This document shows, one piece after another, positions 3 to 24,073 of a DNA stretch of 32,000 bases; within the stretch, counting starts at the first letter, position 1; the number at the start of each line of letters is the position of its first letter. This stretch comes from Vibrio maritimus. Lineage in GTDB: Bacteria; Pseudomonadota; Gammaproteobacteria; Enterobacterales; Vibrionaceae. The notes under the pieces are model-generated. The model did no database searches, was not told the DNA's origin, and saw only the letters and a list, made by a program, of their open reading frames with translations. The stretch covers positions 1,803,730 to 1,835,729 of the forward strand of contig NZ_CP090438.1 of the NCBI RefSeq assembly GCF_021441885.1. Direction: 5' to 3'. The position numbers and the translations under genes are program-made.

Positions 3-1650
3 GGCACAGAAGGTGTGTTCACCGACAATGGTGATGGCACTTATACCTTTGCGCCAAACGAGAACTTTAATGGTGACGTAGACCTAAGCTTCTCAGTAAG
101 CGATGGTACGACCACCACAGAAGCTAATATTGATGTGACGGTTGAGTCGGTCAACGACATTCCTGTTGCCGGTTCTACCACATACTCAGTGAATGAAGAC
201 GGTATCATCACTATCTCTGACGACCAATTGCTTGCTAACTCAAGTGATGTGGAAGGCGAGGTGAGTGTCAGCGATGTTTCTTACTCGGGTACAGACGGCA
301 TCTTTACCGATAACGGTGATGGAACTTACAGCTTTGCGCCAAACGAAAACTTCAACGGTAACGTATCGCTTGATGTAACGGTTGTAGATGAAGACGGTGC
401 AACGGCAGAGACCACTGCAGGCATTGACGTCATTGCAGTCAACGATGCGCCAGTTTCAGGTGGCTTGGCTTACTCAGTTGACGAAGATGGTTCTATTACG
501 CTGACTCAAGATCAATTGCTATCGCAAGCAGGGGACGTCGATGGAGATGCACTAACTGCATCGAACCTCAGCGCGGGAGACAACGCAACAGTAACGGACA
601 ATGGCGATGGTAGCTTTACTATTACGCCAGATGCCAATTTCAACGGAGATATCGACCTTAACTTTGATATCTCTGATGGAGCAGAAACGATCGTTGCAAA
701 CGCTGATCTTACGGTCAATCCGGTAAATGACGCTGCAACATCGGATCCTGTGAGTCTTGCAGGTGTAGAAGACAACGCCATCATCATTTCTCAAGAAGAT
801 TTGTTGATGCATGCTCAAGACATTGATGGAGACGACCTAACCGCGAAAGATCTATCTATCGATGAATCGTTTGGTTCACTGGTTGATAATACTGATGGCA
901 CTTGGACATTCACACCAACGGAAAACTTCAACGGCGACGTTCCATTCAACTTTAACGTTGATGACGGTACTGAACTGACACCTGTTCAAGGCAACATCGA
1001 CATTGCTGCTGTTAACGATGAACCTCAGGCACCTGCAATCGAAATGCAGGGAGAAGAAGACCAAGTTATGGTCATCGATCCTGAATTCATCTTGGCACAA
1101 GCAAGTGATTTAGATGGCGATGAACTCACACTTGAAAGTATCAGTGTTAAGTCACCACAAAATGCGCAATTGCAACAGCAACCGGATGGTATGTATCACC
1201 TCGTTACTTCACAAGATTTCAACGGATTAGTTGAACTGGCTTACGAAATCACAGATGGAGAAGCGACGGCAGAAGGCTCGTTAAATGTTGATGTCATTCC
1301 TGTAAATGATGCTCCATTTGCAGATGGAAACGCCTTCTTAACGACCAATGAGGATGGGGCATTTACCTTCGATTCATCCGATATGCTCGACCTGTTTGGT
1401 GATATAGACACAGAAAGCCTAGTTATTTCACGAATCATCATGCCAGATGGTGAAGATGCCGGTGATCTGAATGACAACGGTGATGGTACCTGGACATTCA
1501 CACCAACGGGTGATTTCGCCGGAACGTCAGGGCTTCAAGTTATCGCTTCAGATGGAGAGTTTGAAACCTCACTCGATGTTCCTGTCTTTGTTCGTCCAGT
1601 CGCGGATGGAGCCGTTATTACAACAGATCATGACGGTCCATTGGTGTTCT
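3..1650 (+). repeat. Tandem ~285-nt (95-aa) domain repeats inside the adhesin gene
   Basis: DNA at 19-80 recurs with silent or near-silent changes at 304-365. The DNGDG..NFNG motif recurs near nt 18, 303, 591, 880, 1180 and 1455. Degenerate copies lie further on (~2080, ~2390, ~3030). Confidence 0.7.
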
Positions 1651-3389
1651 CTGAAGATTCAACCGGTCACTTAGGGCTTAACGTTGACCTCATTGATGAT
1701 TCGGAAATGCTCAGCAACTTGGTTATGACTGGTTTCCCTGTCGGGTTTGAAGTAAGCGATGGTGAAAATACTGTCATTATTACAGAGCCTGGACAAATGA
1801 TCAGTATCACCAACTGGAACATAGACGATCTACAGTTAACACCACCTGAAGACTTCTCTGGAAACTTCTTCGTAACTGTTAGTGCAACCACGGTTGACTA
1901 TGGTGACGAACCGTTGCCAGAACCAGAAGGTAGTGAAATTGCAGGCGACTTTGATACAACGCTAGGCGAACCAATTATCCTCACAGAAGAAGACTTGATT
2001 GGCATGGCACAAAACATCGACGCTAATGATGATGACGCTATCCAGATGGTTCACTTAGTTGATCCTAACCAAGGCTCGATGGTTGACAATGGTGACGGTA
2101 CCTGGACCTTTAGTCCGGCCGATGGCTTTACAGGCGAAGTAGACTTTGCGTATGTCGTTGAACGTGATGGTATTCTTCATGATGAACAAAGCACTATTGG
2201 TGTTCATGAAAATGAAGGACAAATCACCGATGGACCGCAGATTGAATCAATCGCTTCTGCTAGTGTGGAGGAAAGTGAACCACTTAACTTCACCGATAGC
2301 GATATGCTTAGCACCTTGAGCTCCGAATCTGGAGAAATGAGTATTGAATCCGTTACATTGCTTGAAGGTGAAGGGCTAATTGAATCTGACGGGCAGGGTG
2401 GTTATCAATTCACCCCAGCTGAAGGATACACTGGAAGTGCTCAAATCGGCTTTGTCGCGAGTGATGGTGAGAACAGTGTCGAAAGCCACTTCAATATCAA
2501 TGTAGACGAGCAAGAACCTTCAACGGTTGAAGCGCTAAGTCAAGCGGATGATGGTTCGGTTAGCATCAGTGGCGAACAAGTGCTTTCAAGTCTTGATGTC
2601 GCGGACGATGCAAGCTTATCTGATCTTAGCTATACAGGCGACGAAGGCGCACTAGTTCCTGCAGGAGACGATCAATGGACATTCTGGCCAGACTCTGAGT
2701 TTAGCGGTGATATCCCACTGGAAGCAACAGTTCAATCTGGTGGCGAAGAGCAAACTCTAACTACAACGATGAACGTTGAGACTGCACCTGAATCGACAGA
2801 AGCAACTCCTGAGCAAGCGACGGCTGAAACAGAAACTACGCAAGAATCTGTAGAAGCTTCAGCAAGCGACGATTCAGCCACATCAGATGACGAAGCCGCT
2901 GACATGACAGCTGCGCCAGGCGATGATGTCAGTCTATCAATTCCTGATGAGGTAGCTTCAGCAGAAGGTGTTGAACAGGTTGAACTATCGGGTATTCCAG
3001 ATGGTGCATCTGTGAGTGGAGCGCTAGATAATGGCGATGGTACTTACACGGTATCTGGTGACTTGTCACAACCGGTCACGATGTCGCTGGGTGATTCGTT
3101 TGAAGGTGAAGCAGAGATCTCGTTCCAAGGTGTGGATGAACTTGATACTCCAATAGATGGCGCTTCGGCAACAACAACAATTGAAGTTGATGACCAATAT
3201 GCGATGCAAGCGAGTAGCCAAACTCCAGCAGATACGTCAGGTCTACAAGATGCAGGTGGCAGCGGCGATTGGACATCTGGGGACAACACAGATACTGGTG
3301 TTGACTTTACAGATGACTCGGGAAGCTTCGGTCATGATGATCAATCATCAGGAGGCAGTCAACACGACTTTGACGATAACAACTTCTAG
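3..3389 (+). CDS. Giant repetitive adhesin-like exoprotein, C-terminal part (5' end lies upstream of the window)
   Basis: The frame is open from the window edge. Codons before the track's GTG at 15 (GTEG) continue the repeat, so 15 is not a real start. About 95-aa units carry DNGDGT(Y/W)(T/S)FxPxxNFNGD and VND(A/I/E)P motifs. The tail is acidic and T/E/S/D-rich, the stop is TAG at 3387-3389, and a hairpin terminator follows. Confidence 0.85.
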   Translation, partial: GTEGVFTDNGDGTYTFAPNENFNGDVDLSFSVSDGTTTTEANIDVTVESVNDIPVAGSTTYSVNEDGIITISDDQLLANSSDVEGEVSVSDVSYSGTDGIFTDNGDGTYSFAPNENFNGNVSLDVTVVDEDGATAETTAGIDVIAVNDAPVSGGLAYSVDEDGSITLTQDQLLSQAGDVDGDALTASNLSAGDNATVTDNGDGSFTITPDANFNGDIDLNFDISDGAETIVANADLTVNPVNDAATSDPVSLAGVEDNAIIISQEDLLMHAQDIDGDDLTAKDLSIDESFGSLVDNTDGTWTFTPTENFNGDVPFNFNVDDGTELTPVQGNIDIAAVNDEPQAPAIEMQGEEDQVMVIDPEFILAQASDLDGDELTLESISVKSPQNAQLQQQPDGMYHLVTSQDFNGLVELAYEITDGEATAEGSLNVDVIPVNDAPFADGNAFLTTNEDGAFTFDSSDMLDLFGDIDTESLVISRIIMPDGEDAGDLNDNGDGTWTFTPTGDFAGTSGLQVIASDGEFETSLDVPVFVRPVADGAVITTDHDGPLVFSEDSTGHLGLNVDLIDDSEMLSNLVMTGFPVGFEVSDGENTVIITEPGQMISITNWNIDDLQLTPPEDFSGNFFVTVSATTVDYGDEPLPEPEGSEIAGDFDTTLGEPIILTEEDLIGMAQNIDANDDDAIQMVHLVDPNQGSMVDNGDGTWTFSPADGFTGEVDFAYVVERDGILHDEQSTIGVHENEGQITDGPQIESIASASVEESEPLNFTDSDMLSTLSSESGEMSIESVTLLEGEGLIESDGQGGYQFTPAEGYTGSAQIGFVASDGENSVESHFNINVDEQEPSTVEALSQADDGSVSISGEQVLSSLDVADDASLSDLSYTGDEGALVPAGDDQWTFWPDSEFSGDIPLEATVQSGGEEQTLTTTMNVETAPESTEATPEQATAETETTQESVEASASDDSATSDDEAADMTAAPGDDVSLSIPDEVASAEGVEQVELSGIPDGASVSGALDNGDGTYTVSGDLSQPVTMSLGDSFEGEAEISFQGVDELDTPIDGASATTTIEVDDQYAMQASSQTPADTSGLQDAGGSGDWTSGDNTDTGVDFTDDSGSFGHDDQSSGGSQHDFDDNNF

Positions 3390-3417: not shown

Positions 3418-3456
3418 AAGCCCATGTGAATTGTTGAAATGATCATGGGCTTTTTC
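3418..3456 (+). terminator. Rho-independent terminator of the adhesin gene
   Basis: Stem AAAGCCCATG (3417-3426) pairs with CATGGGCTTT (3444-3453) and is followed by a T-run, 29 nt after the stop codon. Confidence 0.8.
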
Positions 3457-3597
3457 TAATAGTCACAATTACTAATCTCTGATTAAGTAATGTGATTATT
3501 AGGTATTTTATGGTAAATCATGATTATCGTTAAATACGATGATGAAATGAGGGAATAGTGGCAAGGAGAACATAGATTTCAAGCTAACGCACATTCA

Positions 3598-3625
3598 ATT
3601 TAACATAAGATAGATAATACGCACT
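3598..3625. other. dif: dif-type XerC/XerD recombination site, chromosome/prophage hybrid (left junction of the array)
   Basis: ATTTAACATAA-GATAGA-TAATACGCACT. The XerD arm is 11/11 to the remembered TTATGTTAAAT arm of E. coli and V. cholerae dif. The XerC arm is 10/11 to V. cholerae dif1 (AGTGCGCATTA). Identity with the later units begins at 3612, inside the 6-nt core. Confidence 0.8.
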
Positions 3626-3644
3626 AAATCTGTAAGCGCAAAGT

Positions 3645-5162
3645 TGTAATGTCACTATTTACCAAAGTTAAAATGTCTCTTTAGCTCGTGGTCACTAAGC
3701 TTTACTTACAACCAGCTAAGGATGCGTTTAAGATGCTAGTGACTATGAATGATTCTGATATCAATCGTTTTAAAGTAATCCAAGATGTTTGCGATCGTAG
3801 GATCCGACGAGTCGACGCGGCAGACATCCTTGATTTGAGTGTTCGCCAAGTTCAGAGGCTTATGAATCGCCTGAGGGAATTCGGTGCTGTAGGATTGACT
3901 CACCAAGCTCGAGGTAAGCCAAGTAATAACCGCTATCCTAGTGACTACCGAGACACAGTTTTAAAACTGATTCGTGATCACTATTCTGATTTTTCTCCAA
4001 CGCTTGCTAGAGAAAAACTATTGGAGTTACATAGCCTTCCAGTATCTAACGAGACCTTACGAAGTTGGATGATTGCAGATGGTTTATGGACGCCACATTC
4101 GCAACGCAAGCCTAAAGTTTACCAACCTCGCTACCGACGTGATTGTTTGGGCGAGCTCGTTCAAATTGATGGCTCTCACCATGATTGGTTTGAAGGACGC
4201 GCTGACAAATGTTGTTTACTGGTCTTTATCGATGATGCGACTGGCCGCCTGATGAATTTAAGGTTCAGCGAAACCGAATCGGCCTTTGATTACATGCTAA
4301 CAACGAGAGAATATCTTAATGAACACGGCAAACCCGTAGCGTTCTACAGCGATAAGCATTCGATTTTTCGGGTGAATCAGGAAAAGCAAAAACAAGTCGG
4401 TCAAACTCAATATGCCCGTGTATTAAAAGAGTTAGGTATTGAACTGATATGTGCGAACAGCTCTCAAGCTAAAGGTCGTGTGGAGCGAGTAAACTTGACG
4501 CTACAAGACCGACTCGTCAAAGAGATGCGCTTACAAGGAATTAACACCATCGAAGAAGCGAATGCTTGGCTTCCCTACTTCATTGCCGATTTCAATCGAC
4601 GCTTTGCTAAGCCGGCAATGTATCCGAAAAACATGCATCGAAAAGTGCGTGAAACCACACAGGAACTCGACGATATTTTCAGTTGGCAAGAAATACGTAA
4701 ACTCTCTAAATCGTTGACATTTCAATATGACAAAGTGGTTTATCTTATTGAGCCAAATGAAGAAAATACTCGCTTAGTTCACGAGCATGTCAAAGTCTTA
4801 GACTATCCCAACGGAGACATTGCGATTGTGTATGGCCACAGAAAGTTGGAATTCAAAATTTTCGATAAGCTTGAGCATGTTCAACAAACCCAAATTGTCG
4901 ACAACAAGCGATTAGGTCAAGTACTAAAGTTTGCTCAACAGCAGCAAGAAGAATTCGAGCGACAACAGAAACGCACACGGAGCAAAAAAGCCCCTAAACG
5001 CAGAGCTCAACAAAGAGCGCTTCAGGAACAACTAAGGGCTATAAACCCAGTTCTCATCACACCAGAAACCTTCAAAGCATCTAAGAGTAAAACCTAACTC
5101 ACCTACTCTATTTAGCTCATAAAGAGACATTTCTACCTGGGAGAAAAGAGGACATTTTAAAA
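3645..5162 (+). mobile_element. ISNCY-like (IS1202-group-like) insertion sequence, ends approximate
   Basis: A single DDE transposase gene is flanked by inverted motifs. A perfect 12-bp pair AATGTCTCTTTA (3672-3683) / TAAAGAGACATT (5120-5131) is flanked by an imperfect outer pair AATGTCACTATT (3648-3659) / AAAGAGGACATT (5145-5156). No target-site duplication could be identified. Confidence 0.7.
3688..5097 (+). CDS. DDE (rve/integrase-core) transposase, ISNCY-like
   Basis: N-terminal HTH (SVRQVQRLMNRL). Candidate catalytic residues lie in VQIDGSHH, AFYSDKHS and AKGRVERVN. The C-terminus is basic. The track start is GTG; ATG at 3733 (AAGGA upstream) or 3745 (MNDSD) is a more likely start. Confidence 0.85.
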   Translation: MVTKLYLQPAKDAFKMLVTMNDSDINRFKVIQDVCDRRIRRVDAADILDLSVRQVQRLMNRLREFGAVGLTHQARGKPSNNRYPSDYRDTVLKLIRDHYSDFSPTLAREKLLELHSLPVSNETLRSWMIADGLWTPHSQRKPKVYQPRYRRDCLGELVQIDGSHHDWFEGRADKCCLLVFIDDATGRLMNLRFSETESAFDYMLTTREYLNEHGKPVAFYSDKHSIFRVNQEKQKQVGQTQYARVLKELGIELICANSSQAKGRVERVNLTLQDRLVKEMRLQGINTIEEANAWLPYFIADFNRRFAKPAMYPKNMHRKVRETTQELDDIFSWQEIRKLSKSLTFQYDKVVYLIEPNEENTRLVHEHVKVLDYPNGDIAIVYGHRKLEFKIFDKLEHVQQTQIVDNKRLGQVLKFAQQQQEEFERQQKRTRSKKAPKRRAQQRALQEQLRAINPVLITPETFKASKSKT

Positions 5163-5310
5163 TGGGATTGACAAAATCGAATTTATCCAAAACAGCATTT
5201 TATCCTGTGGTTATCCCGTCAAACTTCACAAAATCCACTATCGAGACCCAAACCGGTCATGACTTTATACTGCCACCTCCGCTCTCAATGCGAAAAACTT
5301 AGCACAAAAT

Positions 5311-5348
5311 AAAATGACATACCAATCGACTCAGTATGTCATTTTTTT
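5311..5348. terminator. Bidirectional rho-independent terminator (end of phage cargo operon; also faces the IS)
   Basis: AAAATGACATAC (5311-5322) pairs with GTATGTCATTTT (5334-5345) around an 11-nt loop. A T7 run follows on the plus strand and TTTTATTTT on the minus strand. It lies 24 nt beyond the stop of the 169-aa gene. Confidence 0.75.
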
Positions 5349-5371
5349 ACTCTGTCCATTCTTTACAACGG

Positions 5372-5881
5372 TTACGGCTCGTCCAGTAACCCAAGCTTTT
5401 TAGCCACCTTTATTAGGTCGAATGGCTGTTGAAATTGAGCTTGTATCTTTTGCACTTCCAAAATGTCGAGTCCTGAAATTTCCGAACTATAATCCACGTT
5501 TTCAACAAGATTGAGACTACTTCGAATTTCATCCAAAGTCATACCATTAGGGTATTCTTCAGATCGAATGGTTATCTGTGGGTATTGGTCTAAAATCTCA
5601 ACCACTTTCAAACGTTCTTGTTCCGAGCACTTTTCTCTATTGTCCAAAGAAAGATATAGAAGCACCTTTTTTTTATCGTCATTTCCTAATGATGAAAACC
5701 AGCTTGTAGTTGGAAATCTTTTTGAAGCCGCTCTTGATTGAAGTAAACAATACTCAACTCGATTACCATAAGCTTGCATAGCATCAGACAAAGCTAAAGA
5801 ACGTAACTCATTAGAGCCAGCATAAGAAAAAGGTAAGAAACACATTAAAAATAAGCAGGTTAAACCTTTACAAAGCCGCAT
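5372..5881 (-). CDS. Secreted 169-aa cargo protein, function unknown
   Basis: The N-terminal signal peptide is MRLCKGLTCLFLMCFLPFSYA/GS. GGAGG lies upstream. It overlaps the 113-aa gene by 14 nt and is the last gene before the terminator. I recognise no family. Confidence 0.75.
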   Translation of the reverse strand: MRLCKGLTCLFLMCFLPFSYAGSNELRSLALSDAMQAYGNRVEYCLLQSRAASKRFPTTSWFSSLGNDDKKKVLLYLSLDNREKCSEQERLKVVEILDQYPQITIRSEEYPNGMTLDEIRSSLNLVENVDYSSEISGLDILEVQKIQAQFQQPFDLIKVAKKLGLLDEP

Positions 5882-6209
5882 TTGATACGCACCTCCAAAA
5901 TTCGCCCTCAGCAGTATAACTACCAGTTCTTAAGCTCATGGTTTCCGCAATAGAAAATACACGCCCTTTTGCAGTTTTATTAATAGCGTTCAGAGTTTTA
6001 CTAAACTCAACCCAATCATAGCCAGCTATACTCAGCATGGTTTGACTCGTATTTGCTTTACCAAGAAACAAATCAAACAATGGAACGGTGCTCGTTGCAA
6101 CTGCTAGCATGTTCGCCCTATCTACGATATCTCTAATCTCATCAACTGCCTCTATACTTTCACGAGACAATTTTAAATTATCAATCCGACAATACCCTAC
6201 ATTTGCCAT
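5868..6209 (-). CDS. 113-aa soluble cargo protein, function unknown
   Basis: ATG start with AAGGG 8-9 nt upstream. No TM segment or signal peptide. It is probably translationally coupled to the 169-aa gene. I recognise no family. Confidence 0.7.
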   Translation of the reverse strand: MANVGYCRIDNLKLSRESIEAVDEIRDIVDRANMLAVATSTVPLFDLFLGKANTSQTMLSIAGYDWVEFSKTLNAINKTAKGRVFSIAETMSLRTGSYTAEGEFWRCVSNAAL

Positions 6210-6258
6210 TTATTAAGCCCTTATGAAACCAATATAGTATCGTAAATCTTACTATACA

Positions 6259-6414
6259 CTAAGAAGCCTTTTCTAATCTCCTCTCAAGCTCTCGAATAAC
6301 ACGGCAAAGCTCAACAATTCGCTCAAACATTAAAGACGAAGGCTCACGTTCGTAAGCCTCCATAGCTAAAGCTAATTCATCACGCAAACGAGATAAAGAA
6401 AAATCCAAAACCAT
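6259..6414 (-). CDS. 51-aa helical small protein (below the ORF-track cutoff)
   Basis: Hand translation: MVLDFSLSRLRDELALAMEAYEREPSSLMFERIVELCRVIRELERRLEKAS. The ATG directly abuts the zot-like TAG (6415-6417), and GGTGGTG lies upstream. Confidence 0.5.
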   Translation of the reverse strand: MVLDFSLSRLRDELALAMEAYEREPSSLMFERIVELCRVIRELERRLEKAS

Positions 6415-7590
6415 CTAGTCACCACCAAACGCCGATGAAAAAGACGAAGCTAAATCAATATTAGGATGTTGGCCTGTAGGCCGTTCACCCTCGCAGTAAA
6501 CGAAATCTGAATAGCCCTCAAACTTCAATTCAACCAAACAAGGACCCATTACCGCCACATCATAGCCTGCCATATATAAGTCCTGAAGCTTCAAGGGGAA
6601 TTCATAACGAGATTTATTCACTGCCTTAAAATAAACCTCTGTTTGTCGATGCAAACGCCCTCTATCGTCTTTGTAGAACGAATCAGACGACCCTGTGATA
6701 GCCAGTTGAAGTTTACCAAATGGATGCACTGTATCAGCCTTACGCTGCCTAGAAGACGGTCTTTTCTTCTCTGGCTCTGAATTTTGCTTATCTTCCACTA
6801 CGACACGCTTAGATTCTACTACGGGCTCAGGCTCTGATTTGTTGCCAAACAACGCTAAACCACTCGTTATAGACATAGGCAACGCAATGATAATTGCAGG
6901 GATACCTACCCAGAAATACCAACGCTTCCAGATAGGCTTAATGTCACTAGCGTGAGCTTCATTCACCGATTGGTCAGATTGAGTATGCGAAGTATAGAAC
7001 GGGAAAAATCGAGGCTTATATGTTCGAACGTTGGTGTTCAACTCAGCAGGCCGACCCTCAGCACCGTCTAATACTTTTTGCGTATAAGTTTTATCAGACC
7101 CAGCTGCGGAATGCTTCGACACTCGATACTGAATTTGTATCATTGCTCGAACATCTTTGTGAAGTTTTCCAAGGCTTTGAGTCATTAACAAAATATCATG
7201 GCCATAATGACGGTGCATCGACATATATTCCAATACATCCGCCAAATTCTCAGATGCTTTCTTGCCTCTGCCTTGACTAGGTAAAACAAAGTGACATTCA
7301 TCAATGACGAACAATGCACCAACGCCCTCGTCATTCTTCCACTCGTCAGACGTAAAACAATCCTTTGTAGAGAAAGCTTTGACCGCCCCAACCTCACGGG
7401 AATAGCTATCTTCTCGAACCTCGATAAGATCTAATATTTCCTTGCCAAAAACCGATTCGAAATGATCTAAATTTAAAGGCACATTAGTGATAACTTTGCG
7501 CCCTTCCTTAAGCGCAGGAATGATGTGATACACCACAGATTCGTAAGATTTACCCGAACCTGGTCTACCCACGATAATGTTAATTGGCAT
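6415..7590 (-). CDS. Zot/pI-family inovirus assembly ATPase
   Basis: Walker A GRPGSGKS at residues 8-15 and Walker B LFVIDECH. A central TM segment (WYFWVGIPAIIIALPMSITSGLALF) has a C-terminal domain beyond it. The SD is GGGGGTG. The position follows the pVI-like gene, as in Ff and CTXphi. Confidence 0.9.
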   Translation of the reverse strand: MPINIIVGRPGSGKSYESVVYHIIPALKEGRKVITNVPLNLDHFESVFGKEILDLIEVREDSYSREVGAVKAFSTKDCFTSDEWKNDEGVGALFVIDECHFVLPSQGRGKKASENLADVLEYMSMHRHYGHDILLMTQSLGKLHKDVRAMIQIQYRVSKHSAAGSDKTYTQKVLDGAEGRPAELNTNVRTYKPRFFPFYTSHTQSDQSVNEAHASDIKPIWKRWYFWVGIPAIIIALPMSITSGLALFGNKSEPEPVVESKRVVVEDKQNSEPEKKRPSSRQRKADTVHPFGKLQLAITGSSDSFYKDDRGRLHRQTEVYFKAVNKSRYEFPLKLQDLYMAGYDVAVMGPCLVELKFEGYSDFVYCEGERPTGQHPNIDLASSFSSAFGGD

Positions 7591-7600
7591 CAGTCACCCC

Positions 7601-7918
7601 CTAAGAACCTAAACGTGTAAACGGAATAATCTGCAAACCTAGACGAATCAAGATTGCAGACACGATAATTACACTTGCTTCATTCACGCCCACTAAAGCC
7701 ATGATAGATTTTGCTTCGTCAGGAATCAGGTCGATATATTGAATCACGTTCAAGGCCGAAAACGCCGAACCAAAACCATTGATAGCAACTAAAGCTATCG
7801 ATAACACGCTATCAAAAAAGAATATGCCAATATCTTTCAACAAATCGTAGAGCGACAATAAAATAGACAAGCAAAAGTTAACAAAGTCATTCCAACGCTC
7901 AGCAAACCAATCCAACAT
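7601..7918 (-). CDS. pVI-like minor coat / membrane protein (Ace position)
   Basis: A hydrophobic multi-TM ~105-aa protein between the pIII-like and pI-like genes. The track start at 7930 is TTG. ATG at 7918 has GGAGG 5 nt upstream and lies 1 nt after the pIII-like stop codon. Confidence 0.75.
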   Translation of the reverse strand: MLDWFAERWNDFVNFCLSILLSLYDLLKDIGIFFFDSVLSIALVAINGFGSAFSALNVIQYIDLIPDEAKSIMALVGVNEASVIIVSAILIRLGLQIIPFTRLGS

Positions 7919-7919
7919 A

Positions 7920-14722: not shown

Positions 14723-15232
14723 TTACGGCTCGTCCAGTAACCCAAGCTTTTTAGCCACCTTTATTAGGTCGAATGGCTGTTGAAATTGAGCTTGTATCTT
14801 TTGCACTTCCAAAATGTCGAGTCCTGAAATTTCCGAACTATAATCCACGTTTTCAACAAGATTGAGACTACTTCGAATTTCATCCAAAGTCATACCATTA
14901 GGGTATTCTTCAGATCGAATGGTTATCTGTGGGTATTGGTCTAAAATCTCAACCACTTTCAAACGTTCTTGTTCCGAGCACTTTTCTCTATTGTCCAAAG
15001 AAAGATATAGAAGCACCTTTTTTTTATCGTCATTTCCTAATGATGAAAACCAGCTTGTAGTTGGAAATCTTTTTGAAGCCGCTCTTGATTGAAGTAAACA
15101 ATACTCAACTCGATTACCATAAGCTTGCATAGCATCAGACAAAGCTAAAGAACGTAACTCATTAGAGCCAGCATAAGAAAAAGGTAAGAAACACATTAAA
15201 AATAAGCAGGTTAAACCTTTACAAAGCCGCAT
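14723..15232 (-). CDS. Secreted 169-aa cargo protein (copy 2)
   Basis: Translation identical to copy 1. Confidence 0.75.
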   Translation of the reverse strand: MRLCKGLTCLFLMCFLPFSYAGSNELRSLALSDAMQAYGNRVEYCLLQSRAASKRFPTTSWFSSLGNDDKKKVLLYLSLDNREKCSEQERLKVVEILDQYPQITIRSEEYPNGMTLDEIRSSLNLVENVDYSSEISGLDILEVQKIQAQFQQPFDLIKVAKKLGLLDEP

Positions 15233-15560
15233 TTGATACGCACCTCCAAAATTCGCCCTCAGCAGTATAACTACCAGTTCTTAAGCTCATGGTTTCCGCA
15301 ATAGAAAATACACGCCCTTTTGCAGTTTTATTAATAGCGTTCAGAGTTTTACTAAACTCAACCCAATCATAGCCAGCTATACTCAGCATGGTTTGACTCG
15401 TATTTGCTTTACCAAGAAACAAATCAAACAATGGAACGGTGCTCGTTGCAACTGCTAGCATGTTCGCCCTATCTACGATATCTCTAATCTCATCAACTGC
15501 CTCTATACTTTCACGAGACAATTTTAAATTATCAATCCGACAATACCCTACATTTGCCAT
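15219..15560 (-). CDS. 113-aa cargo protein (copy 2)
   Basis: Translation identical to copy 1. Confidence 0.7.
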   Translation of the reverse strand: MANVGYCRIDNLKLSRESIEAVDEIRDIVDRANMLAVATSTVPLFDLFLGKANTSQTMLSIAGYDWVEFSKTLNAINKTAKGRVFSIAETMSLRTGSYTAEGEFWRCVSNAAL

Positions 15561-15609
15561 TTATTAAGCCCTTATGAAACCAATATAGTATCGTAAATCT
15601 TACTATACA

Positions 15610-15765
15610 CTAAGAAGCCTTTTCTAATCTCCTCTCAAGCTCTCGAATAACACGGCAAAGCTCAACAATTCGCTCAAACATTAAAGACGAAGGCTCACGT
15701 TCGTAAGCCTCCATAGCTAAAGCTAATTCATCACGCAAACGAGATAAAGAAAAATCCAAAACCAT
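15610..15765 (-). CDS. 51-aa helical small protein (copy 2)
   Basis: Copy 1 +9351; DNA checked identical by eye. Confidence 0.5.
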   Translation of the reverse strand: MVLDFSLSRLRDELALAMEAYEREPSSLMFERIVELCRVIRELERRLEKAS

Positions 15766-16941
15766 CTAGTCACCACCAAACGCCGATGAAAAAGACGAAG
15801 CTAAATCAATATTAGGATGTTGGCCTGTAGGCCGTTCACCCTCGCAGTAAACGAAATCTGAATAGCCCTCAAACTTCAATTCAACCAAACAAGGACCCAT
15901 TACCGCCACATCATAGCCTGCCATATATAAGTCCTGAAGCTTCAAGGGGAATTCATAACGAGATTTATTCACTGCCTTAAAATAAACCTCTGTTTGTCGA
16001 TGCAAACGCCCTCTATCGTCTTTGTAGAACGAATCAGACGACCCTGTGATAGCCAGTTGAAGTTTACCAAATGGATGCACTGTATCAGCCTTACGCTGCC
16101 TAGAAGACGGTCTTTTCTTCTCTGGCTCTGAATTTTGCTTATCTTCCACTACGACACGCTTAGATTCTACTACGGGCTCAGGCTCTGATTTGTTGCCAAA
16201 CAACGCTAAACCACTCGTTATAGACATAGGCAACGCAATGATAATTGCAGGGATACCTACCCAGAAATACCAACGCTTCCAGATAGGCTTAATGTCACTA
16301 GCGTGAGCTTCATTCACCGATTGGTCAGATTGAGTATGCGAAGTATAGAACGGGAAAAATCGAGGCTTATATGTTCGAACGTTGGTGTTCAACTCAGCAG
16401 GCCGACCCTCAGCACCGTCTAATACTTTTTGCGTATAAGTTTTATCAGACCCAGCTGCGGAATGCTTCGACACTCGATACTGAATTTGTATCATTGCTCG
16501 AACATCTTTGTGAAGTTTTCCAAGGCTTTGAGTCATTAACAAAATATCATGGCCATAATGACGGTGCATCGACATATATTCCAATACATCCGCCAAATTC
16601 TCAGATGCTTTCTTGCCTCTGCCTTGACTAGGTAAAACAAAGTGACATTCATCAATGACGAACAATGCACCAACGCCCTCGTCATTCTTCCACTCGTCAG
16701 ACGTAAAACAATCCTTTGTAGAGAAAGCTTTGACCGCCCCAACCTCACGGGAATAGCTATCTTCTCGAACCTCGATAAGATCTAATATTTCCTTGCCAAA
16801 AACCGATTCGAAATGATCTAAATTTAAAGGCACATTAGTGATAACTTTGCGCCCTTCCTTAAGCGCAGGAATGATGTGATACACCACAGATTCGTAAGAT
16901 TTACCCGAACCTGGTCTACCCACGATAATGTTAATTGGCAT
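15766..16941 (-). CDS. Zot/pI-family assembly ATPase (copy 2)
   Basis: Translation identical to copy 1. Confidence 0.9.
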   Translation of the reverse strand: MPINIIVGRPGSGKSYESVVYHIIPALKEGRKVITNVPLNLDHFESVFGKEILDLIEVREDSYSREVGAVKAFSTKDCFTSDEWKNDEGVGALFVIDECHFVLPSQGRGKKASENLADVLEYMSMHRHYGHDILLMTQSLGKLHKDVRAMIQIQYRVSKHSAAGSDKTYTQKVLDGAEGRPAELNTNVRTYKPRFFPFYTSHTQSDQSVNEAHASDIKPIWKRWYFWVGIPAIIIALPMSITSGLALFGNKSEPEPVVESKRVVVEDKQNSEPEKKRPSSRQRKADTVHPFGKLQLAITGSSDSFYKDDRGRLHRQTEVYFKAVNKSRYEFPLKLQDLYMAGYDVAVMGPCLVELKFEGYSDFVYCEGERPTGQHPNIDLASSFSSAFGGD

Positions 16942-16951
16942 CAGTCACCCC

Positions 16952-17269
16952 CTAAGAACCTAAACGTGTAAACGGAATAATCTGCAAACCTAGACGAATC
17001 AAGATTGCAGACACGATAATTACACTTGCTTCATTCACGCCCACTAAAGCCATGATAGATTTTGCTTCGTCAGGAATCAGGTCGATATATTGAATCACGT
17101 TCAAGGCCGAAAACGCCGAACCAAAACCATTGATAGCAACTAAAGCTATCGATAACACGCTATCAAAAAAGAATATGCCAATATCTTTCAACAAATCGTA
17201 GAGCGACAATAAAATAGACAAGCAAAAGTTAACAAAGTCATTCCAACGCTCAGCAAACCAATCCAACAT
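16952..17269 (-). CDS. pVI-like membrane protein (copy 2)
   Basis: Translation identical to copy 1. Confidence 0.75.
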   Translation of the reverse strand: MLDWFAERWNDFVNFCLSILLSLYDLLKDIGIFFFDSVLSIALVAINGFGSAFSALNVIQYIDLIPDEAKSIMALVGVNEASVIIVSAILIRLGLQIIPFTRLGS

Positions 17270-17270
17270 A

Positions 17271-18965
17271 CTAACCTCCAAATACTAAGCGACGTGCTAA
17301 AAGTGCAGCCGTAAATAAAATGAACGCTCTAATCGCCAACCATACACGGCTATCAATTTCGATAGGCTGACAACCAAAATCAACAAAACCCAAATCAAAA
17401 CACATCGTCCAAGTAGGAATCCCTTCTGACACATAACTTAATTTAAAGGAATTGACCCAGCCAGATAAGGCTGTATTTTGAAAGTCATTATTAAAATTAT
17501 TCCAAACACCTTGAAAGCCATTTGGATAATTGGAAGTCCAAAAGCTTGAAGCTCTGCTACTATCAGGAGTCGTACTTATAGGAACGGTAGTTGTAGATAA
17601 ACCCCCTATTAATTCATTTGTTCTATCAATCCTCTCTTCAACCCCAGTCATATCAACATCAACGTTAATATTCATATTTTCTAGAAGTTGATTTGTCATA
17701 TCTAAACGTGATTCGATACCTGTTAAGTTTGAAACAGCAACGACACTACCGCCCTCAATAGGCGGGTCAATTGGAGGGTATATCGGTGGGTCAACTGGAA
17801 CATCAATATCAACTATTGGTTTAACACCATCGACAATAGGCTTAATAATATCTTCTGCAATAGTATCGGTATCAGGGTCACCCGTTAATATTCCAGAAAT
17901 AACAGAATTAATAGCATCACCATAAATAGGGTCGAAAATTGGCGGAAGCGGTCTATCAGAAGGCAATGACACAGGAGGGAGTCCAATAGCAGGAGGAATA
18001 GGAATGTTGTTATCATCAACAGGGATAACCACCGTATTATCGACAAAATATTGAGGAGGAACATCGACACAACCATCATTACCGCAATAACTTACGTCAG
18101 GGTCACTAAAATACCAAACAGGAATTTCATCATTGACTGCTTCATTATCTAAAACATCCTCAATTGCACCTTCCATTACAGAATCTTGTGTGGAAGCTAC
18201 AGGAAATAATACTTCAATTTCATTAATGCTTACACGATTTTTAATTGTTAACTCGCCATTAAAATGAACCTCATGGAAAAACTCACCCTTTAAGATAAAG
18301 GAATTACCTGACATCCCCCAGTGAATAATAGAGTGACTATCGAAACAACTTTTACGTCCTTGCTCTTCACCAACAGTCACCCATTGACCACAATCTGGCT
18401 CAAGATTATTATTTTCCCATGAGCGATATTTTAACCACCAATTATCAGATAACGCCTGTCCACAATCAAATAAAGTGTTTTTCCCGTTTTCATCAGCAAA
18501 ACCAACGTTAATAGGACAAACTAATTTAGTTCCTGTTTTATACAAACCTTTATCCCACGTAGAAGACCAACTACCATCTGCCATTTTAAAAGAAACACTC
18601 TTACCGCAATAATCCGATAAGAAACATTCGTCATCCTTGATTACCATCTCTCCGCCATCAAGATGAAAACCAACTTTTTCTAATGCATACGCCCAAGTTC
18701 CCCAAGGTCTAAGCGCATATTCAGAAGTCATATAATCTTTTATCATTGGAGTGGTAGCAACGGCGGCTGTAGCTAAAACACCTAAATCAGCACCATAATT
18801 AACCGCCATGCGAGCAACCAATGTTCTACCTGTCCACATCGCTGCTTGACCAGTCAGACCAACAACGACAGGAAAAAAAGCACGAGCTGGACGAACGGGA
18901 ATATAAACAATGAAAAAACAAAGAAAATATATCGATAGCCGCTTAATAATCATTTTGCCCACCAT
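17271..18965 (-). CDS. pIII-like minor coat / receptor-binding protein (copy 2)
   Basis: Translation identical to copy 1. Confidence 0.8.
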   Translation of the reverse strand: MVGKMIIKRLSIYFLCFFIVYIPVRPARAFFPVVVGLTGQAAMWTGRTLVARMAVNYGADLGVLATAAVATTPMIKDYMTSEYALRPWGTWAYALEKVGFHLDGGEMVIKDDECFLSDYCGKSVSFKMADGSWSSTWDKGLYKTGTKLVCPINVGFADENGKNTLFDCGQALSDNWWLKYRSWENNNLEPDCGQWVTVGEEQGRKSCFDSHSIIHWGMSGNSFILKGEFFHEVHFNGELTIKNRVSINEIEVLFPVASTQDSVMEGAIEDVLDNEAVNDEIPVWYFSDPDVSYCGNDGCVDVPPQYFVDNTVVIPVDDNNIPIPPAIGLPPVSLPSDRPLPPIFDPIYGDAINSVISGILTGDPDTDTIAEDIIKPIVDGVKPIVDIDVPVDPPIYPPIDPPIEGGSVVAVSNLTGIESRLDMTNQLLENMNINVDVDMTGVEERIDRTNELIGGLSTTTVPISTTPDSSRASSFWTSNYPNGFQGVWNNFNNDFQNTALSGWVNSFKLSYVSEGIPTWTMCFDLGFVDFGCQPIEIDSRVWLAIRAFILFTAALLARRLVFGG

Positions 18966-18989
18966 AAAAAAAGGGGCTTAAACGCCCCT
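18966..18989 (-). terminator. Candidate gVIII/gIII-type terminator (copy 2)
   Basis: Copy 1 +9351. Confidence 0.5.
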
Positions 18990-19076
18990 CATACCTAACA
19001 CAAATGCTATTCCAGCTAGACCGCCGATAACCATAACAGCGGAATAGAACTGGAGGGTAGATACCGCAACAATCAT
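18978..19076 (-). CDS. 32-aa hydrophobic small protein (copy 2)
   Basis: Copy 1 +9351; DNA checked identical by eye. Confidence 0.45.
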   Translation of the reverse strand: MIVAVSTLQFYSAVMVIGGLAGIAFVLGMRGV

Positions 19077-19285
19077 GCTCGACTAACGAGACGTTTAGCT
19101 AGGCTAATACCCTTAACAGCTAGCGCAATACCAACAATGACCACACCGGTAGTACCAATAAACGCTGTTACAGTAGAAAGGTCTACTGCTGCAAAAATTG
19201 AATCGATAGTTGTAGTGTCAGCCATTGCTTGAGGTGCAAGAGAAGCAAGAGTTAACGCTGCTATAGTTGAAGCTGCTTTTTTCAT
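19073..19285 (-). CDS. Major coat protein (copy 2)
   Basis: Translation identical to copy 1. Confidence 0.9.
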   Translation of the reverse strand: MKKAASTIAALTLASLAPQAMADTTTIDSIFAAVDLSTVTAFIGTTGVVIVGIALAVKGISLAKRLVSRA

Positions 19286-19297
19286 AATAAAATCCCT

Positions 19298-19534
19298 CTA
19301 TACGAGTTGTATCATTTTTTTAGCTATGCCAATGACAAAGCCACCAAAATAACCTACCACTACAACCGCACCAAAAGCCCAAGCGAAAACTAATCCAATA
19401 TCGGACGATGATACAAAAACGTGTGATAAATTATATTCATCGGCAGTCTGTAGAACATACGTAGAGCAATTTTCGATAGGTGTTTCACTAACATATAAAA
19501 AATCATCTACAGTTTTTTCAATACAAATTGCCAT
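19298..19534 (-). CDS. 78-aa membrane-anchored protein (copy 2)
   Basis: Translation identical to copy 1. Confidence 0.65.
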   Translation of the reverse strand: MAICIEKTVDDFLYVSETPIENCSTYVLQTADEYNLSHVFVSSSDIGLVFAWAFGAVVVVGYFGGFVIGIAKKMIQLV

Positions 19535-19543
19535 AATTAGAAC

Positions 19544-19831
19544 CTAAGTATTAGAAGCTACAGGAATTAGAGTAATATTACGCTCAAACTCTAAACGACC
19601 AAATTGACCTACTTTAAAAGACGTTTGGTCTAGGTAATATTTACCCGATGCATAATGTGTTTCATCTTCTTGAAGTGGTAAAGAAAATTCAACAGGGAAA
19701 CGACCGCCAAGATGAACAAAGGCAACTTGACTATATAGTTTCATTTCTGCCCTATCGCCTTTAGGTGGAATGGTGCGAATGTCTTTTGTTTCATTATCTT
19801 TAAATATTTCTACTATTAATGCGTTTTTCAT
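19544..19831 (-). CDS. ssDNA-binding protein, gV-like (copy 2)
   Basis: Translation identical to copy 1. Confidence 0.85.
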   Translation of the reverse strand: MKNALIVEIFKDNETKDIRTIPPKGDRAEMKLYSQVAFVHLGGRFPVEFSLPLQEDETHYASGKYYLDQTSFKVGQFGRLEFERNITLIPVASNT

Positions 19832-19840
19832 AATAATTAC

Positions 19841-20236
19841 CTATGCTACTAAACTAATTACGCTATCTTCTTGACCGTATAATTTGGTGATATCCCCTGC
19901 TTGAGGCTCTATCCAGTCAGACGGTCTTTGCTGACTAAAATCAATTTCTATAACTTGTAATAAAGGAACTACGTTATCCTTACCGTGCCCTTTGAGGTTT
20001 TGAAGTTGAGCTTTAGAAAATCCAACTTCCAATAATGGATTTAATTGGTTATAAAATGACTTTTTATTTGATTTACTAAAAGAATCAAAAACTGCGTGAT
20101 AACCATCGCTAACAAGAGAACGATAGAATCTAAATATTCTATCTGCCTTAGAATAAGTAATATTGCCTTTCTTAGTGACAGTAAAAAATTCTTTCTTTAG
20201 TGTGTTATGTACTTGTTCATCATTAAATATGTTCAT
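19841..20236 (-). CDS. Gene X-like internal product (copy 2)
   Basis: Copy 1 +9351. Confidence 0.55.
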   Translation of the reverse strand: MNIFNDEQVHNTLKKEFFTVTKKGNITYSKADRIFRFYRSLVSDGYHAVFDSFSKSNKKSFYNQLNPLLEVGFSKAQLQNLKGHGKDNVVPLLQVIEIDFSQQRPSDWIEPQAGDITKLYGQEDSVISLVA

Positions 20237-21145
20237 TTTTTGACCCTCCAATGCCTCCATTAATGGCGAAAATGCTTTAATCCAAATATCTTTAATTAAA
20301 CAACGTCCGTCTTTTTCATACTCTAATTGAAACCGACAAGCTTCAAATAGGTTTTTGGGTATATTAAACTCATCTAAATATCTACGCTTAGCACTTGCTT
20401 CAAAGCGGATTAAATTTCTAGCAAAGTTAATTAATTCAGGGTTAGACATAACATCAATAACTCTATCATGCGTACGGTCTCCCTTTTCCTGTAAAGAACG
20501 CAAGCTATTAAGCTGTCTATTAAATTCACAACCCTTTAAATATGCCTTTCTATCTACATGACGTGAGCCACGACTAAAGTAACAAGTAGTTTCATGTTCA
20601 TTTCTAACACTAGCTCTCATATGCTTATTGGAGACTGATTTTAACTGACCAATAACTTGCTTAGCTTGTAAATCTGTTTTTGCTCTAGCTGAAAATGTGC
20701 AATCTATAGCATCTAGTGTAGTTCTATAGATGTCTAACATTTCGTAAAAATCTGGATAAGCATGATAAAGAGCCATGAGCATTTCATAAGAACCGACCAC
20801 CATCTGAGTAGAGCCGTAAACGTTATGACCTTGAAGAATTTTAGCTGGAGAGGCTTTTAGCTCGACACAGGCATCTCGTAACTTTGTACCTTGAAAAATT
20901 TTGAACGCAATACCAGTAAAAGAAGTCGGAAGCGTTTGATATGGGTGACGCAAATCTGCAACTTCAAGCTCATCCTGAGAGCCTGAGCCAGTAAAAAAAA
21001 TAGACTTAGCTTCAAGACCAACACCCCCAATCAAAGAGCAAGCACGTATATCAACATAAGATACAAACTCACCCTTAGAACTTTGTTGAGTTTCCAAAAG
21101 ATAGTCTTGCTTGAATGGTATTGAAATTTTAAGCATGTCTATCAT
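19841..21145 (-). CDS. Replication initiator, gII-like (copy 2)
   Basis: Translation identical to copy 1. Confidence 0.9.
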   Translation of the reverse strand: MIDMLKISIPFKQDYLLETQQSSKGEFVSYVDIRACSLIGGVGLEAKSIFFTGSGSQDELEVADLRHPYQTLPTSFTGIAFKIFQGTKLRDACVELKASPAKILQGHNVYGSTQMVVGSYEMLMALYHAYPDFYEMLDIYRTTLDAIDCTFSARAKTDLQAKQVIGQLKSVSNKHMRASVRNEHETTCYFSRGSRHVDRKAYLKGCEFNRQLNSLRSLQEKGDRTHDRVIDVMSNPELINFARNLIRFEASAKRRYLDEFNIPKNLFEACRFQLEYEKDGRCLIKDIWIKAFSPLMEALEGQKMNIFNDEQVHNTLKKEFFTVTKKGNITYSKADRIFRFYRSLVSDGYHAVFDSFSKSNKKSFYNQLNPLLEVGFSKAQLQNLKGHGKDNVVPLLQVIEIDFSQQRPSDWIEPQAGDITKLYGQEDSVISLVA

Positions 21146-21163
21146 GAGACCCCTTCTATACAT

Positions 21164-21290
21164 CCATACCTACATTTATCTATAGAATCGACCATGAAAA
21201 TCAATCTGTCCATACAAAAATACATGTATACACGTGTAACTGTGTTAGAAATCACATAAAATACAAAAAAATGTAAAGGTATGAAGAACC
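21164..21290. promoter_or_regulatory. Divergent promoter/operator region (copy 2)
   Basis: Copy 1 +9351. Confidence 0.45.
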
Positions 21291-21476
21291 ATGACACAAC
21301 GAACAACTATGCAAGTAACAGAGAAAAGAAAGCAGAAGCTAGAAAGAGCAGCTATAGAGATAAGCTACAGAACGGGAAAGCCGATAAAATGGACTGAACT
21401 AGCAAACAAACTTTTCGACGAAAAATTAGATGAACTGAAAAAAGACATGATAAATGAACGTGGCATAACAAAATGA
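21291..21476 (+). CDS. RHH-like regulator (copy 2)
   Basis: Translation identical to copy 1. Confidence 0.55.
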   Translation: MTQRTTMQVTEKRKQKLERAAIEISYRTGKPIKWTELANKLFDEKLDELKKDMINERGITK

Positions 21477-21569
21477 CACAAGAGCCCAGGAGATCAAATA
21501 GGAAGTGAAAGTGTAATATTTACACAAAAGTACACTATTAAAGATAGTGTACCCTCTCTTTGCATTAGC

Positions 21570-21644
21570 GAAAGCTAATCCACAAAATCAAGGCAACCAC
21601 CCCGCAAGCGGGGCCCCCTCCTTTAATTTTGTGGATTAGCTTTC
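21570..21644. other. 75-nt compound hairpin (copy 2)
   Basis: Copy 1 +9351; checked by eye. Confidence 0.6.
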
Positions 21645-21859
21645 TTAACTGAAAAATCGACGGGTTGCAGTGGCAGAAATCGCCTCTTTCGTGGTGAGTC
21701 TCTGCAAGGCTGGCTTAACAGAAAGGAAGGGTATTTATTTTTTGTCTTTGAATGGAGATTGGCTTCGGGCGTTTGGAGGAGTCATACCCAAGAACTACAA
21801 CAAGCGCCCTTTTATCGCTGCGCGATGAAGTTAGATTTAGGGTTCAACTGCTTTCTTAG

Positions 21860-22108
21860 TTAAATGATAGGCCTAAAACGAATTACATGATTATCTCGAA
21901 TTGTAATCGTTTCACCTCTGCGATTCTCACTCAATTTTTCTTTTCTGGTTTTTGCCAAGAAATCACCAAGCTCTGAAATCTCGATAAATTCACGATCTAA
22001 CAAAGCCCTGGCCATTTCATCAAAAGTTACTTCAAAAAGAACAGAAATGCTCTTTTGGTCTAAGTCGTACTTAGTTGAAATTCTTGAGATTAATTCAGTT
22101 TTGTTCAT
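21860..22108 (-). CDS. HU/IHF-like DNA-binding protein (copy 2)
   Basis: Translation identical to copy 1. Confidence 0.65.
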   Translation of the reverse strand: MNKTELISRISTKYDLDQKSISVLFEVTFDEMARALLDREFIEISELGDFLAKTRKEKLSENRRGETITIRDNHVIRFRPII

Positions 22109-22162
22109 TGTGGCTTACCTCATTCACATAAGAATAACTACAATACCACACCGTCATAACTT

Positions 22163-22190
22163 AATGCGCATTATCGAAATTATGTTACGG
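22163..22190 (+). other. dif-like site 1 of attP (copy 2)
   Basis: Copy 1 +9351; checked by eye. Confidence 0.7.
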
Positions 22191-22327: not shown

Positions 22328-22346
22328 AAATCTGTAAGCGCAAAGT

Positions 22347-24050: not shown

Positions 24051-24073
24051 ACTCTGTCCATTCTTTACAACGG

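Follow-up and report, generated by a model that had tools for sequence, protein, structure and literature searches.

A 32,000-nt stretch of contig NZ_CP090438.1 from Vibrio maritimus (hereafter, the window) carries a 28-bp site at positions 3598 to 3625, where chromosomal DNA gives way to a tandem array of filamentous prophages. Very probably, this is where a Vibrio of the mediterranei/maritimus clade has its chromosomal dif, and the site was regenerated on the XerD-side border of a CTX-type array of integrative mobile elements exploiting host Xer recombinases (IMEXs). A preliminary description of the site had read it as the product of XerC-type phage integration. By analogy with CTXphi that reading appears sound, as the repeated element is a recombinase-less filamentous phage with a CTXphi-like attachment region, in which identity to the host core is limited to the XerC side. 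The description lacked two components of the region: an inverted second attachment site, attP2, and an insertion sequence (IS) that sits 5 bp from the XerC arm.

A dif site at the junction of host and prophage DNA

The site reads ATTTAACATAA-GATAGA-TAATACGCACT, with the reverse complement AGTGCGTATTA-TCTATC-TTATGTTAAAT. It occurs once in the window, on the minus strand, and none of 100 shuffles produced a match with up to three mismatches tolerated. Two 11-bp arms flank a 6-bp core, and the 28-mer agrees at all positions with the Vibrio dif consensus ATTTAACATAA(N)6TAATRCGHASY (PMC12715192). The XerD arm is identical (11/11) to that of E. coli dif and of V. cholerae dif, as first described. 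The XerC arm, AGTGCGTATTA, is identical (11/11) to the one that PMC2731167 and PMC3089051 list for dif of N16961 chromosome I, and matches the AGTGCGCATTA form of dif1 at 10/11 positions. The score of 10/11 initially given for this arm therefore holds against the AGTGCGCATTA form of dif1 and fails against the tabulated sequence. The same two forms of the arm are found at attP1 in CTXphi prophage records, with AGTGCGCATTA in GQ485651 (~723-755) and AGTGCGTATTA in AF510996 (~272-304). The GQ485651 arm would be consistent with a far prophage junction that keeps the native dif1 arm, and this difference between far-junction AGTGCGCATTA and phage AGTGCGTATTA is probably the explanation for published tables that list N16961 dif1 with a T.

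The junction and the array are composed as follows:

3598-3608, minus strand: XerD-binding arm of dif, TTATGTTAAAT on this strand; of chromosomal origin, absent from the phage units and identical in all relatives
3609-3614, minus strand: 6-nt dif core TCTATC; 3609-3611 are found only in the chromosome, 3612-3614 are common to the host core and the attP1 core
3615-3625, minus strand: XerC-binding arm AGTGCGTATTA; of phage origin under the model, and the same arm is present in the relatives' native dif
3612-12962, minus strand: prophage unit 1, 9351 bp
12963-22313, minus strand: prophage unit 2, 100% identical to unit 1
22314-31664, minus strand: prophage unit 3, 100% identical; a fourth unit begins at 31665 and leaves the window

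When the window was compared to itself at an offset of 9351 bp, there were zero mismatches from 3612 to the window end, and 3609, 3610 and 3611 each mismatched. A repeat finder agrees on the period of 9351 bp and counts 3.04 copies at 100% identity, the array continuing past the right edge of the window. Each 9351-bp unit comprises a filamentous phage of 7803 bp, an IS of 1543 bp and a 5-bp duplication. Both this architecture and the exact boundary of the repeat are read directly from the DNA. An exact 26-mer from the inter-unit junction found no match in IMG/VR, and searches for exact copies of the HU-like protein, the transposase, pII and Zot gave no hit either.

Phage homology starts at 3612 and the chromosomal homology of relatives extends to 3625, leaving a stretch of 14 nt shared by phage and host. 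Judged from these alignments, the exchange is confined to this 14-nt overlap, with the expected XerC cut site inside it. That cut is expected at 3614|3615, the boundary of arm and core, a position carried over from CTXphi and dif biochemistry (PMC4246890). The coordinates, the 28-mer and the repeat boundary given in the preliminary description were exact, and the offset comparison confirms that identity among units begins three nt from the XerC arm. Its placement of the crossover inside the core was overstated, as 3612 is the left limit of shared sequence and the cut would fall at the edge of the core.

The same dif in related vibrios

DNA to the left of 3612 is unique within the window, as had been stated, and has orthologous counterparts in the chromosomal flanks of related vibrios. 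Using the C-terminal 299 amino acids (aa) of the adhesin encoded on this flank as a query, we found orthologous loci in front of dif in five Vibrio species, with 80-87% aa identity: V. methylphosphonaticus (87%), V. variabilis (83%), Vibrio sp. 10N.286.49.B1 (82%), V. mediterranei (82%) and V. maritimus (80%). At the syntenic locus, ~210 nt 3' of the adhesin orthologue, dif is identical to the window's 28-mer in V. maritimus and V. variabilis (28/28 each) and differs only at its final base in Vibrio sp. 10N.286.49.B1 (27/28). The dif of V. mediterranei has the same arms and the core TATACA in place of GATAGA. In alignments of the window with its relatives, homology spans the entire 28-mer and is lost directly past 3625.

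Synteny between V. maritimus and Vibrio sp. 10N.286.49.B1 extends to both sides of dif. Because only 1.2-1.8 kb separates dif from the conserved right flank in these two genomes, they serve as prophage-free comparators. The check proposed for the site, whether relatives carry dif at this locus, was thus answered by direct observation: dif is present at 28/28 in two relatives and at 27/28 in a third, and two of the three lack a prophage and are syntenic on both sides. The junction had been called a near-canonical dif, and the 28-mer indeed equals the dif of prophage-free relatives. The accompanying label of a hybrid site is apt for its origin and misleading for its sequence, which is indistinguishable from the native dif of relatives. 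Because of this identity, the junction should still act as a dif and as a landing site.

In V. variabilis, a different element of ~8.9 kb (L004 4644-13533) occupies the same dif, and because another element is found at this very site, we view the dif locus as a hot spot for IMEXs. That element terminates in a dif-like site whose spacer is 7 nt long, ATTTAACTTAA-GGCGAGA-TAATACGCACT, with an IS1202-family end 5 bp further on. Its first ~100 nt are also present after the V. maritimus dif, where they may be a remnant. Short-read assemblies break at or near dif in V. methylphosphonaticus (L003, a 3244-nt contig) and in V. mediterranei (L006, with the contig end 117 nt past dif), and such breaks fit with repeated IMEX or IS copies at the locus.

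A dif site is expected at the switch of GC skew at the replication terminus. The window's own skew is uninformative about the terminus because everything past dif on that side is phage DNA, which has a strand bias itself. In three relatives, skew was ~+0.06 to the left of dif and switched to between -0.055 and -0.076 to its right, over only ~4-11 kb of left flank and 10 kb of right flank. A sign change in this direction is that of the terminus, opposite to the polarity of the origin, and over such a local span is supportive. The FtsK-orienting KOPS motif GGGNAGGG occurs once in the flanks of the relatives, on the left side and directed at dif, and none is reversed. The skew check called for in the preliminary description thus gave a local switch at the site in three relatives, which is supportive of a terminus there.

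A CTXphi-like attachment module

Two dif-like sites, inverted relative to one another, lie at the end of each unit:

12944-12976, minus strand: attP1, the inter-unit junction, AGTGCGTATTA-TCTGCATGGAA-TTATGTTGAGG, with an 11-nt spacer; copies at 22295-22327 and 31646-31678
12812-12839, plus strand: attP2, AATGCGCATTA-TCGAAA-TTATGTTACGG, with a 6-nt spacer, inverted relative to attP1; copies at 22163-22190 and 31514-31541
12806-12982, minus strand: predicted forked hairpin attP(+) of the packaged strand; DNA fold of -23.6 kcal/mol, z = -2.5

The inter-unit junction is the attachment site as it would stand in the circular phage genome, with a perfect XerC arm, an 11-nt spacer and a XerD-like arm. 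At 6-7 nt from the XerC arm, attP1 has no XerD-like arm (5/11 and 3/11); the good arm is found at 11 nt. Between its core, TCTGCATGGAA, and the host core, TCTATC, identity is limited to the TCT beside the XerC arm (AGA on the plus strand). It had been proposed that phage site and host core share an AGA next to this arm, and these three bases proved to be the only ones shared. The canonical 6-bp spacer of attP2 makes it a candidate for the true crossover site, which we rejected given that the unit boundary lies at attP1 and that attP2 is inverted.

The corresponding sites of CTXphi are AGTGCGTATTA-TGTGGCGCGGCA-TTATGTTGAGG for attP1 and AATGCGTATTA-TACGCCA-TTATGTTACGG for attP2 (AF510996 and GQ485651, in agreement with Table II of PMC3089051). 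By direct comparison, the arms of the window phage match those of CTXphi at 22/22 positions in attP1 and 21/22 in attP2, and the attP2 region is 83-85% identical to the CTXphi intergenic region ig-1 over 52 nt. The distance between attP1 and attP2 is 104 nt in the window phage vs 89 nt in the CTXphi GenBank records, as measured by the same script. Because the phage genes are on the minus strand of the window, this is taken to be the packaged strand. On that coding strand, attP1 reads from XerC to XerD, as a top strand would, and the same is true of CTXphi. The predicted hairpin consists of a XerC-arm stem, a 5-nt core bulge (TGCAT), a XerD-arm stem and a structured loop of 104 nt, and it restores a 6-bp core. 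A consensus forked hairpin is kept in five phages, the window phage being joined by CTXphi, V. parahaemolyticus phage V5 and two V. cyclitrophicus elements. With invariant arms, the alignment is one of conservation and not of covariation.

A model for integration

In CTXphi, XerC cuts both partners where its arm meets the first base of the core, and the freed bases swap and must pair; XerD is inactive as the remaining core differs, and replication resolves the junction (PMC4246890). The bases beside the XerC arm thereby set the specificity of XerC-only integration (PMC4246890). Because a second, inverted attP2 is present, we suggest that the window phage likewise integrated by way of a single-stranded hairpin. 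Its packaged (+) strand, which corresponds to the minus strand of the window, would fold and bring attP1 and attP2 together by base pairing, giving a dif-like duplex of 28 bp from which 5 nt bulge out. Host XerC and XerD would bind both the hairpin and dif, and XerC would cut the two top strands between AGTGCGTATTA and the core and swap them, the shared TCT stabilizing the swap. With the remaining cores differing, XerD would be unable to finish the reaction, and the Holliday junction would be resolved by replication. The predicted product consists of the left flank, a chromosomal XerD arm and core TCTATC, a phage-derived XerC arm and then the prophage. The regenerated dif could accept the next phage copy, leaving plain attP1 at inter-unit junctions. 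Plain attP1 at those junctions and a regenerated dif on the side of the XerD flank are what we observe, matching the prediction of the model. From CTXphi we infer XerC catalysis, use of the hairpin as substrate, a junction resolved when it is replicated and an array that grows through serial integration.

Weighing the integration model against alternatives

Several points weigh against this interpretation. The right end of the array is beyond the window, which places the reciprocal junction outside our view. The case for XerC dependence and for a single-stranded substrate is one of analogy, and the invariance of the arms affords the hairpin stems little support from covariation. The phage XerC arm equals the native arm of relatives, and so no base marks 3615-3625 as phage-derived. 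The skew and KOPS data come from relatives and span ~4-11 kb of left flank and 10 kb of right flank, where the giant adhesin gene could bias them. Finally, the IS lies only 5 bp from the XerC arm, and an effect on Xer binding is a possible complication.

The Xer junction could be real even if the identical copies did not come from serial integration but from unequal crossing-over, rolling-circle re-replication, integration of a multimer, or concatenation of replicative-form reads by the assembler. A single recent event fits the 100% identity of all copies, IS and duplication included, as well as repeated infection does; plain attP1 at the inter-unit junctions is expected under every scenario for the origin of the array; and, with the window ending within the array, copy number is unverifiable there. 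Yet serial integration into a regenerated dif is a documented route to IMEX arrays, arrays are usual for such phages (94.9% of CTX-II inoviruses; PMC12715192) and the left junction is clean to the base. We hold these other origins of the array to be the less likely ones, while still giving them appreciable weight.

Other explanations concern the junction itself. The duplex replicative form could have integrated through attP1 alone, either by XerC exchange, as for VGJphi-type elements, or by a XerD-first reaction at a degenerate XerD arm, as for TLCphi-type elements. At the canonical spacing of 6-7 nt, the perfect XerC arm of attP1 is not matched by a proper XerD arm, a superficial likeness to TLCphi, and VGJ-type single sites with a 7-nt spacer exist in related V. 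cyclitrophicus elements (L001, L002). However, the XerD-like arm TTATGTTGAGG is intact, identical to that of CTXphi and displaced to 11 nt, a duplex spacing that according to the literature is no Xer substrate, and pairing with the inverted attP2, which stands at CTX spacing, restores 6 bp. Moreover, the cores share bases on the XerC side only, whereas a TLC-type reaction needs the XerD side, and the Pfam, NCBIfam and PHROG scans gave no family suggestive of an XafT-like factor among the ORFs (open reading frames) of the unit. Integration through attP1 alone is accordingly improbable in our estimation. We give still less credence, indeed very little, to the idea that the 28-mer is an untouched native dif beside which a cointegrate of the IS placed the phage, 5 bp from the XerC arm, without any Xer recombination. 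An intact IS1202-family element with a target specificity for exactly that position does lie between dif and the phage genes in each unit, and the 28-mer is identical to the native dif of relatives. A cointegrate, though, predicts a repeat boundary at 3626 or 3631, where the observed boundary is 3612, and it predicts that the first IS is bordered by the chromosomal 5 bp, which are GGGAT, GAGAT, TAAAG or TTGAT in relatives; in the window AAATC is found on both sides of every copy. Because AAATC flanks every copy, one simple insertion of the IS inside the phage is indicated. The complete attP1/attP2 module at each unit end would also go unexplained by the cointegrate route.

An IS1202-family element beside the attachment site

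Each phage unit contains the following element:

3631-5173, plus strand: IS1202-family (ISAjo2-like, 'dif hunter') IS, 1543 bp, TGT...ACA; copies at 12982-14524 and 22333-23875 (+9351 and +18702)

Its transposase ORF (3688-5097) matches NCBIfam ISNCY_2 at 509.6 bits, against a cutoff of 250. The IS opens with TGT at 3631, closes with ACA at 5171-5173 and is bordered by the 5-bp duplication AAATC at 3626-3630 and 5174-5178. It starts exactly 5 bp past the XerC arm, which ends at 3625, and is intact in every phage unit. We considered and rejected a reading of the 9351-bp unit as two IMEXs, a transposase element and a phage: there is no XerC-like arm (at most one mismatch) or dif-like 28-mer between them, and the inverted ends and 5-bp duplication of the transposase element are those of an ordinary IS insertion.

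The defining features of the IS1202-family 'dif site hunters' were laid out in Acinetobacter (PMC10132070; Harmer et al. 2023). The window IS resembles the ISAjo2/ISAba32 subgroup in its length of ~1.5 kb, its TnsB-like DDE transposase with N-terminal helix-turn-helix domains, its TGT...ACA ends, its 5-bp duplication and its offset of 5 bp from the XerC arm. Elements of this subgroup are known on Acinetobacter pdif modules and at the chromosomal dif of several genera (PMC10132070; Siguier et al. bioRxiv 2022.12.17.520857). Unlike those cases, the window IS targets the attP1, or regenerated dif, of a Vibrio filamentous phage and is copied with each unit.

Related IS copies or remnants with the same 5-bp offset are present in V. 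cyclitrophicus phage records (L001 10498+, L002 8716+, L014 6505+, L017 473+), whose backbones are unrelated and include both attP types. A related copy or remnant at this offset is also present in V. variabilis (L004 ~13534+), and in Vibrio sp. 10N.286.49.B1 a decayed one adjoins the chromosomal dif (L005 11365-11880). A homologous transposase fragment was found in 30 V. cyclitrophicus phage records. In many V. cyclitrophicus records (e.g., PQ189335, PQ189383 and PQ189311), the transposase homologue ends at aa 323, 6 nt before the end of the record; because it stops at the same residue, published V. cyclitrophicus prophage borders cut the IS at a recurrent point. Vibrio phages go unmentioned in the two IS1202 papers, as do transposases in the Vibrio IMEX survey. 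We tentatively propose, on a judgment falling somewhat short of even confidence, that a dif-hunting IS uses dif-integrating filamentous phages as vehicles: it would insert 5 bp from the XerC arm of attP, leaving the site intact, and then be packaged, cross between Vibrio species and be delivered with the phage precisely to the chromosome terminus. This idea is undescribed in the IS1202 papers and the Vibrio prophage survey that we checked.

Gene content of the prophage

Within the first unit, we identified the following genes:

5372-6414, minus strand: three accessory ORFs of 169, 113 and 51 aa, downstream of zot, with no Pfam, NCBIfam or PHROG match
6415-7590, minus strand: Zot/pI-like assembly ATPase (Pfam Zot, E = 7e-32)
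7601-7930, minus strand: Ace/pVI-like minor coat protein (PHROG 306 and PHROGs 31956/19407, cited for 7601-9614 as a whole)
7920-9614, minus strand: pIII-like adsorption protein (same PHROGs, cited for 7601-9614)
9722-9934, minus strand: major coat protein (PHROG 6548 and 2924, cited for 9722-10480 as a whole)
9947-10183, minus strand: small conserved protein (same PHROGs, cited for 9722-10480)
10193-10480, minus strand: pV single-stranded DNA-binding protein (Pfam Phage_DNA_bind)
10490-11812, minus strand: pII rolling-circle replication initiator of the Ff/IKe type (Pfam Phage_CRI, G2P_X_C; 40-42% aa identity to IKe and Ff pII)
11940-12125, plus strand: divergently transcribed ORF of 61 aa (PHROG 2503, a function-unknown family)
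12509-12757, minus strand: HU/IHF-like DNA-binding protein gene, 82 aa, beside attP2 (Pfam Bac_DNA_binding, E = 6e-15; weak NCBIfam IHF and HU matches)

By its predicted genes, the repeated unit is a complete inovirus, with pII, pV, a major coat protein, pIII-like and pVI/Ace-like proteins and Zot. Pfam, NCBIfam and PHROG scans of selected ORFs of at least 46 aa found neither a tyrosine or serine recombinase nor any other family of recombination factors in the unit, and the sole DDE enzyme belongs to the inserted IS. Among the unit ORFs, these three databases also yielded no family suggestive of an XafT-like activation factor, a search that did not include a dedicated XafT profile. The HU/IHF-like protein could bend or stabilize the attachment hairpin, or could serve in regulation, and the 61-aa ORF is a possible regulator given its position. 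The phage is a mosaic, in which a pII of the Ff/IKe type, and not the RstA of CTXphi, is joined to a CTXphi-like attachment module with identical arms. GenBank phage records contained no close phage relative.

The chromosomal flank

On the XerD side of dif, the window contains these features:

15-3389, plus strand: 3' part of a giant cadherin-repeat adhesin gene, forming the chromosomal left flank (Pfam Cadherin_5, Big_9, Cadherin_4)
3420-3455, plus strand: terminator-like hairpin GCCCATG...CATGGGC followed by a T run, 3' of the adhesin gene; read from the sequence, with stem and T run kept in relatives
3457-3518, no strand assigned: host palindrome with arms at 3457-3477 and 3481-3501, overlapping a weak inverse dif-like 28-mer at 3491-3518; not phage

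Past the terminator-like hairpin, ~150 nt of intergenic DNA precede dif. The inverse dif-like 28-mer, 79 nt to the left of dif, has a XerD-like arm of 10/11 and a XerC-like arm of 8/11. The palindrome block at 3457-3518 is nearly invariant across the five species, with variable intergenic DNA around it. We rejected 3491-3518 as the scar of an older CTX-type junction, since the XerD-side flank receives no such scar in the model and since it overlaps a palindrome that is kept in all relatives.

Comparison with known Xer-dependent elements

The Xer mechanism itself is well known, and understanding of Xer recombination is unchanged by these observations. What the window offers is a clean, base-resolved example of what appears to be CTX-type Xer-mediated phage integration outside V. 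cholerae, one that would extend the three-base, XerC-side rule of tropism to a new core pair (phage TCT, host TCTATC). The presence of a CTX attachment module on a replicon of the Ff/IKe type implies that the module moves between phage backbones. For annotation, the site would mark the terminus of the replicon and account for breaks in short-read assemblies of this clade (L003, L006). That each unit has an IS at 5 bp from its XerC arm points to two layers of parasitism on the Xer system.

IMEXs of the VGJphi and TLCphi types resemble the window phage in using host XerCD at dif and in regenerating dif. VGJphi differs in having a single double-stranded attP with a 7-bp spacer in place of paired inverted sites, and attP1 of the window phage is not a duplex site that could be used as is at that spacing. 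TLCphi also has a single double-stranded attP, with a degenerate XerD arm, a XerD-first exchange and the factor XafT. In the window phage, the core differs from dif on the XerD side, and the family scans described above, with no profile dedicated to XafT among them, gave nothing suggestive of that factor.

The closest counterparts are of the CTX type. Like the CTX-II inoviruses (CtxAB-, XafT-negative; Ma & Zhang 2025, PMC12715192), the window phage is integrated at dif, toxin-free, without a detected XafT and arranged in a tandem array, a likeness to a class defined by its gene content (rstR and zot termini), where the window phage is of the pII type and has three small ORFs and an IS beyond zot. 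IMEX arrays of such sort are found in 12.6% of complete Vibrio genomes (PMC12715192). In comparison to CTXphi (Val et al. 2005; Das et al. 2010; reviews PMC4246890 and PMC3089051), the window phage has spacers of 11 and 6 nt vs 12 and 7 nt, a loop of 104 nt vs ~90 nt, and the triplet TCT with a TCTATC-core dif vs TGT/TGTATG or GGT/GGTATA. It has a pII of the Ff/IKe type where CTXphi has RstA, lacks ctxAB, resides in a host of the V. mediterranei clade and bears an IS beside attP1. What the two have in common is the design of the attachment region and its outcome. In each, a single intergenic region contains a pair of dif-like sites in opposite orientation, attP1 with the long spacer and attP2 with the short one, and the packaged strand forms a forked hairpin, a predicted one in the window phage. 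Core identity is limited to three bases on the XerC side, dif is regenerated on the side of the XerD flank, the copies stand in tandem arrays and there is no integrase.

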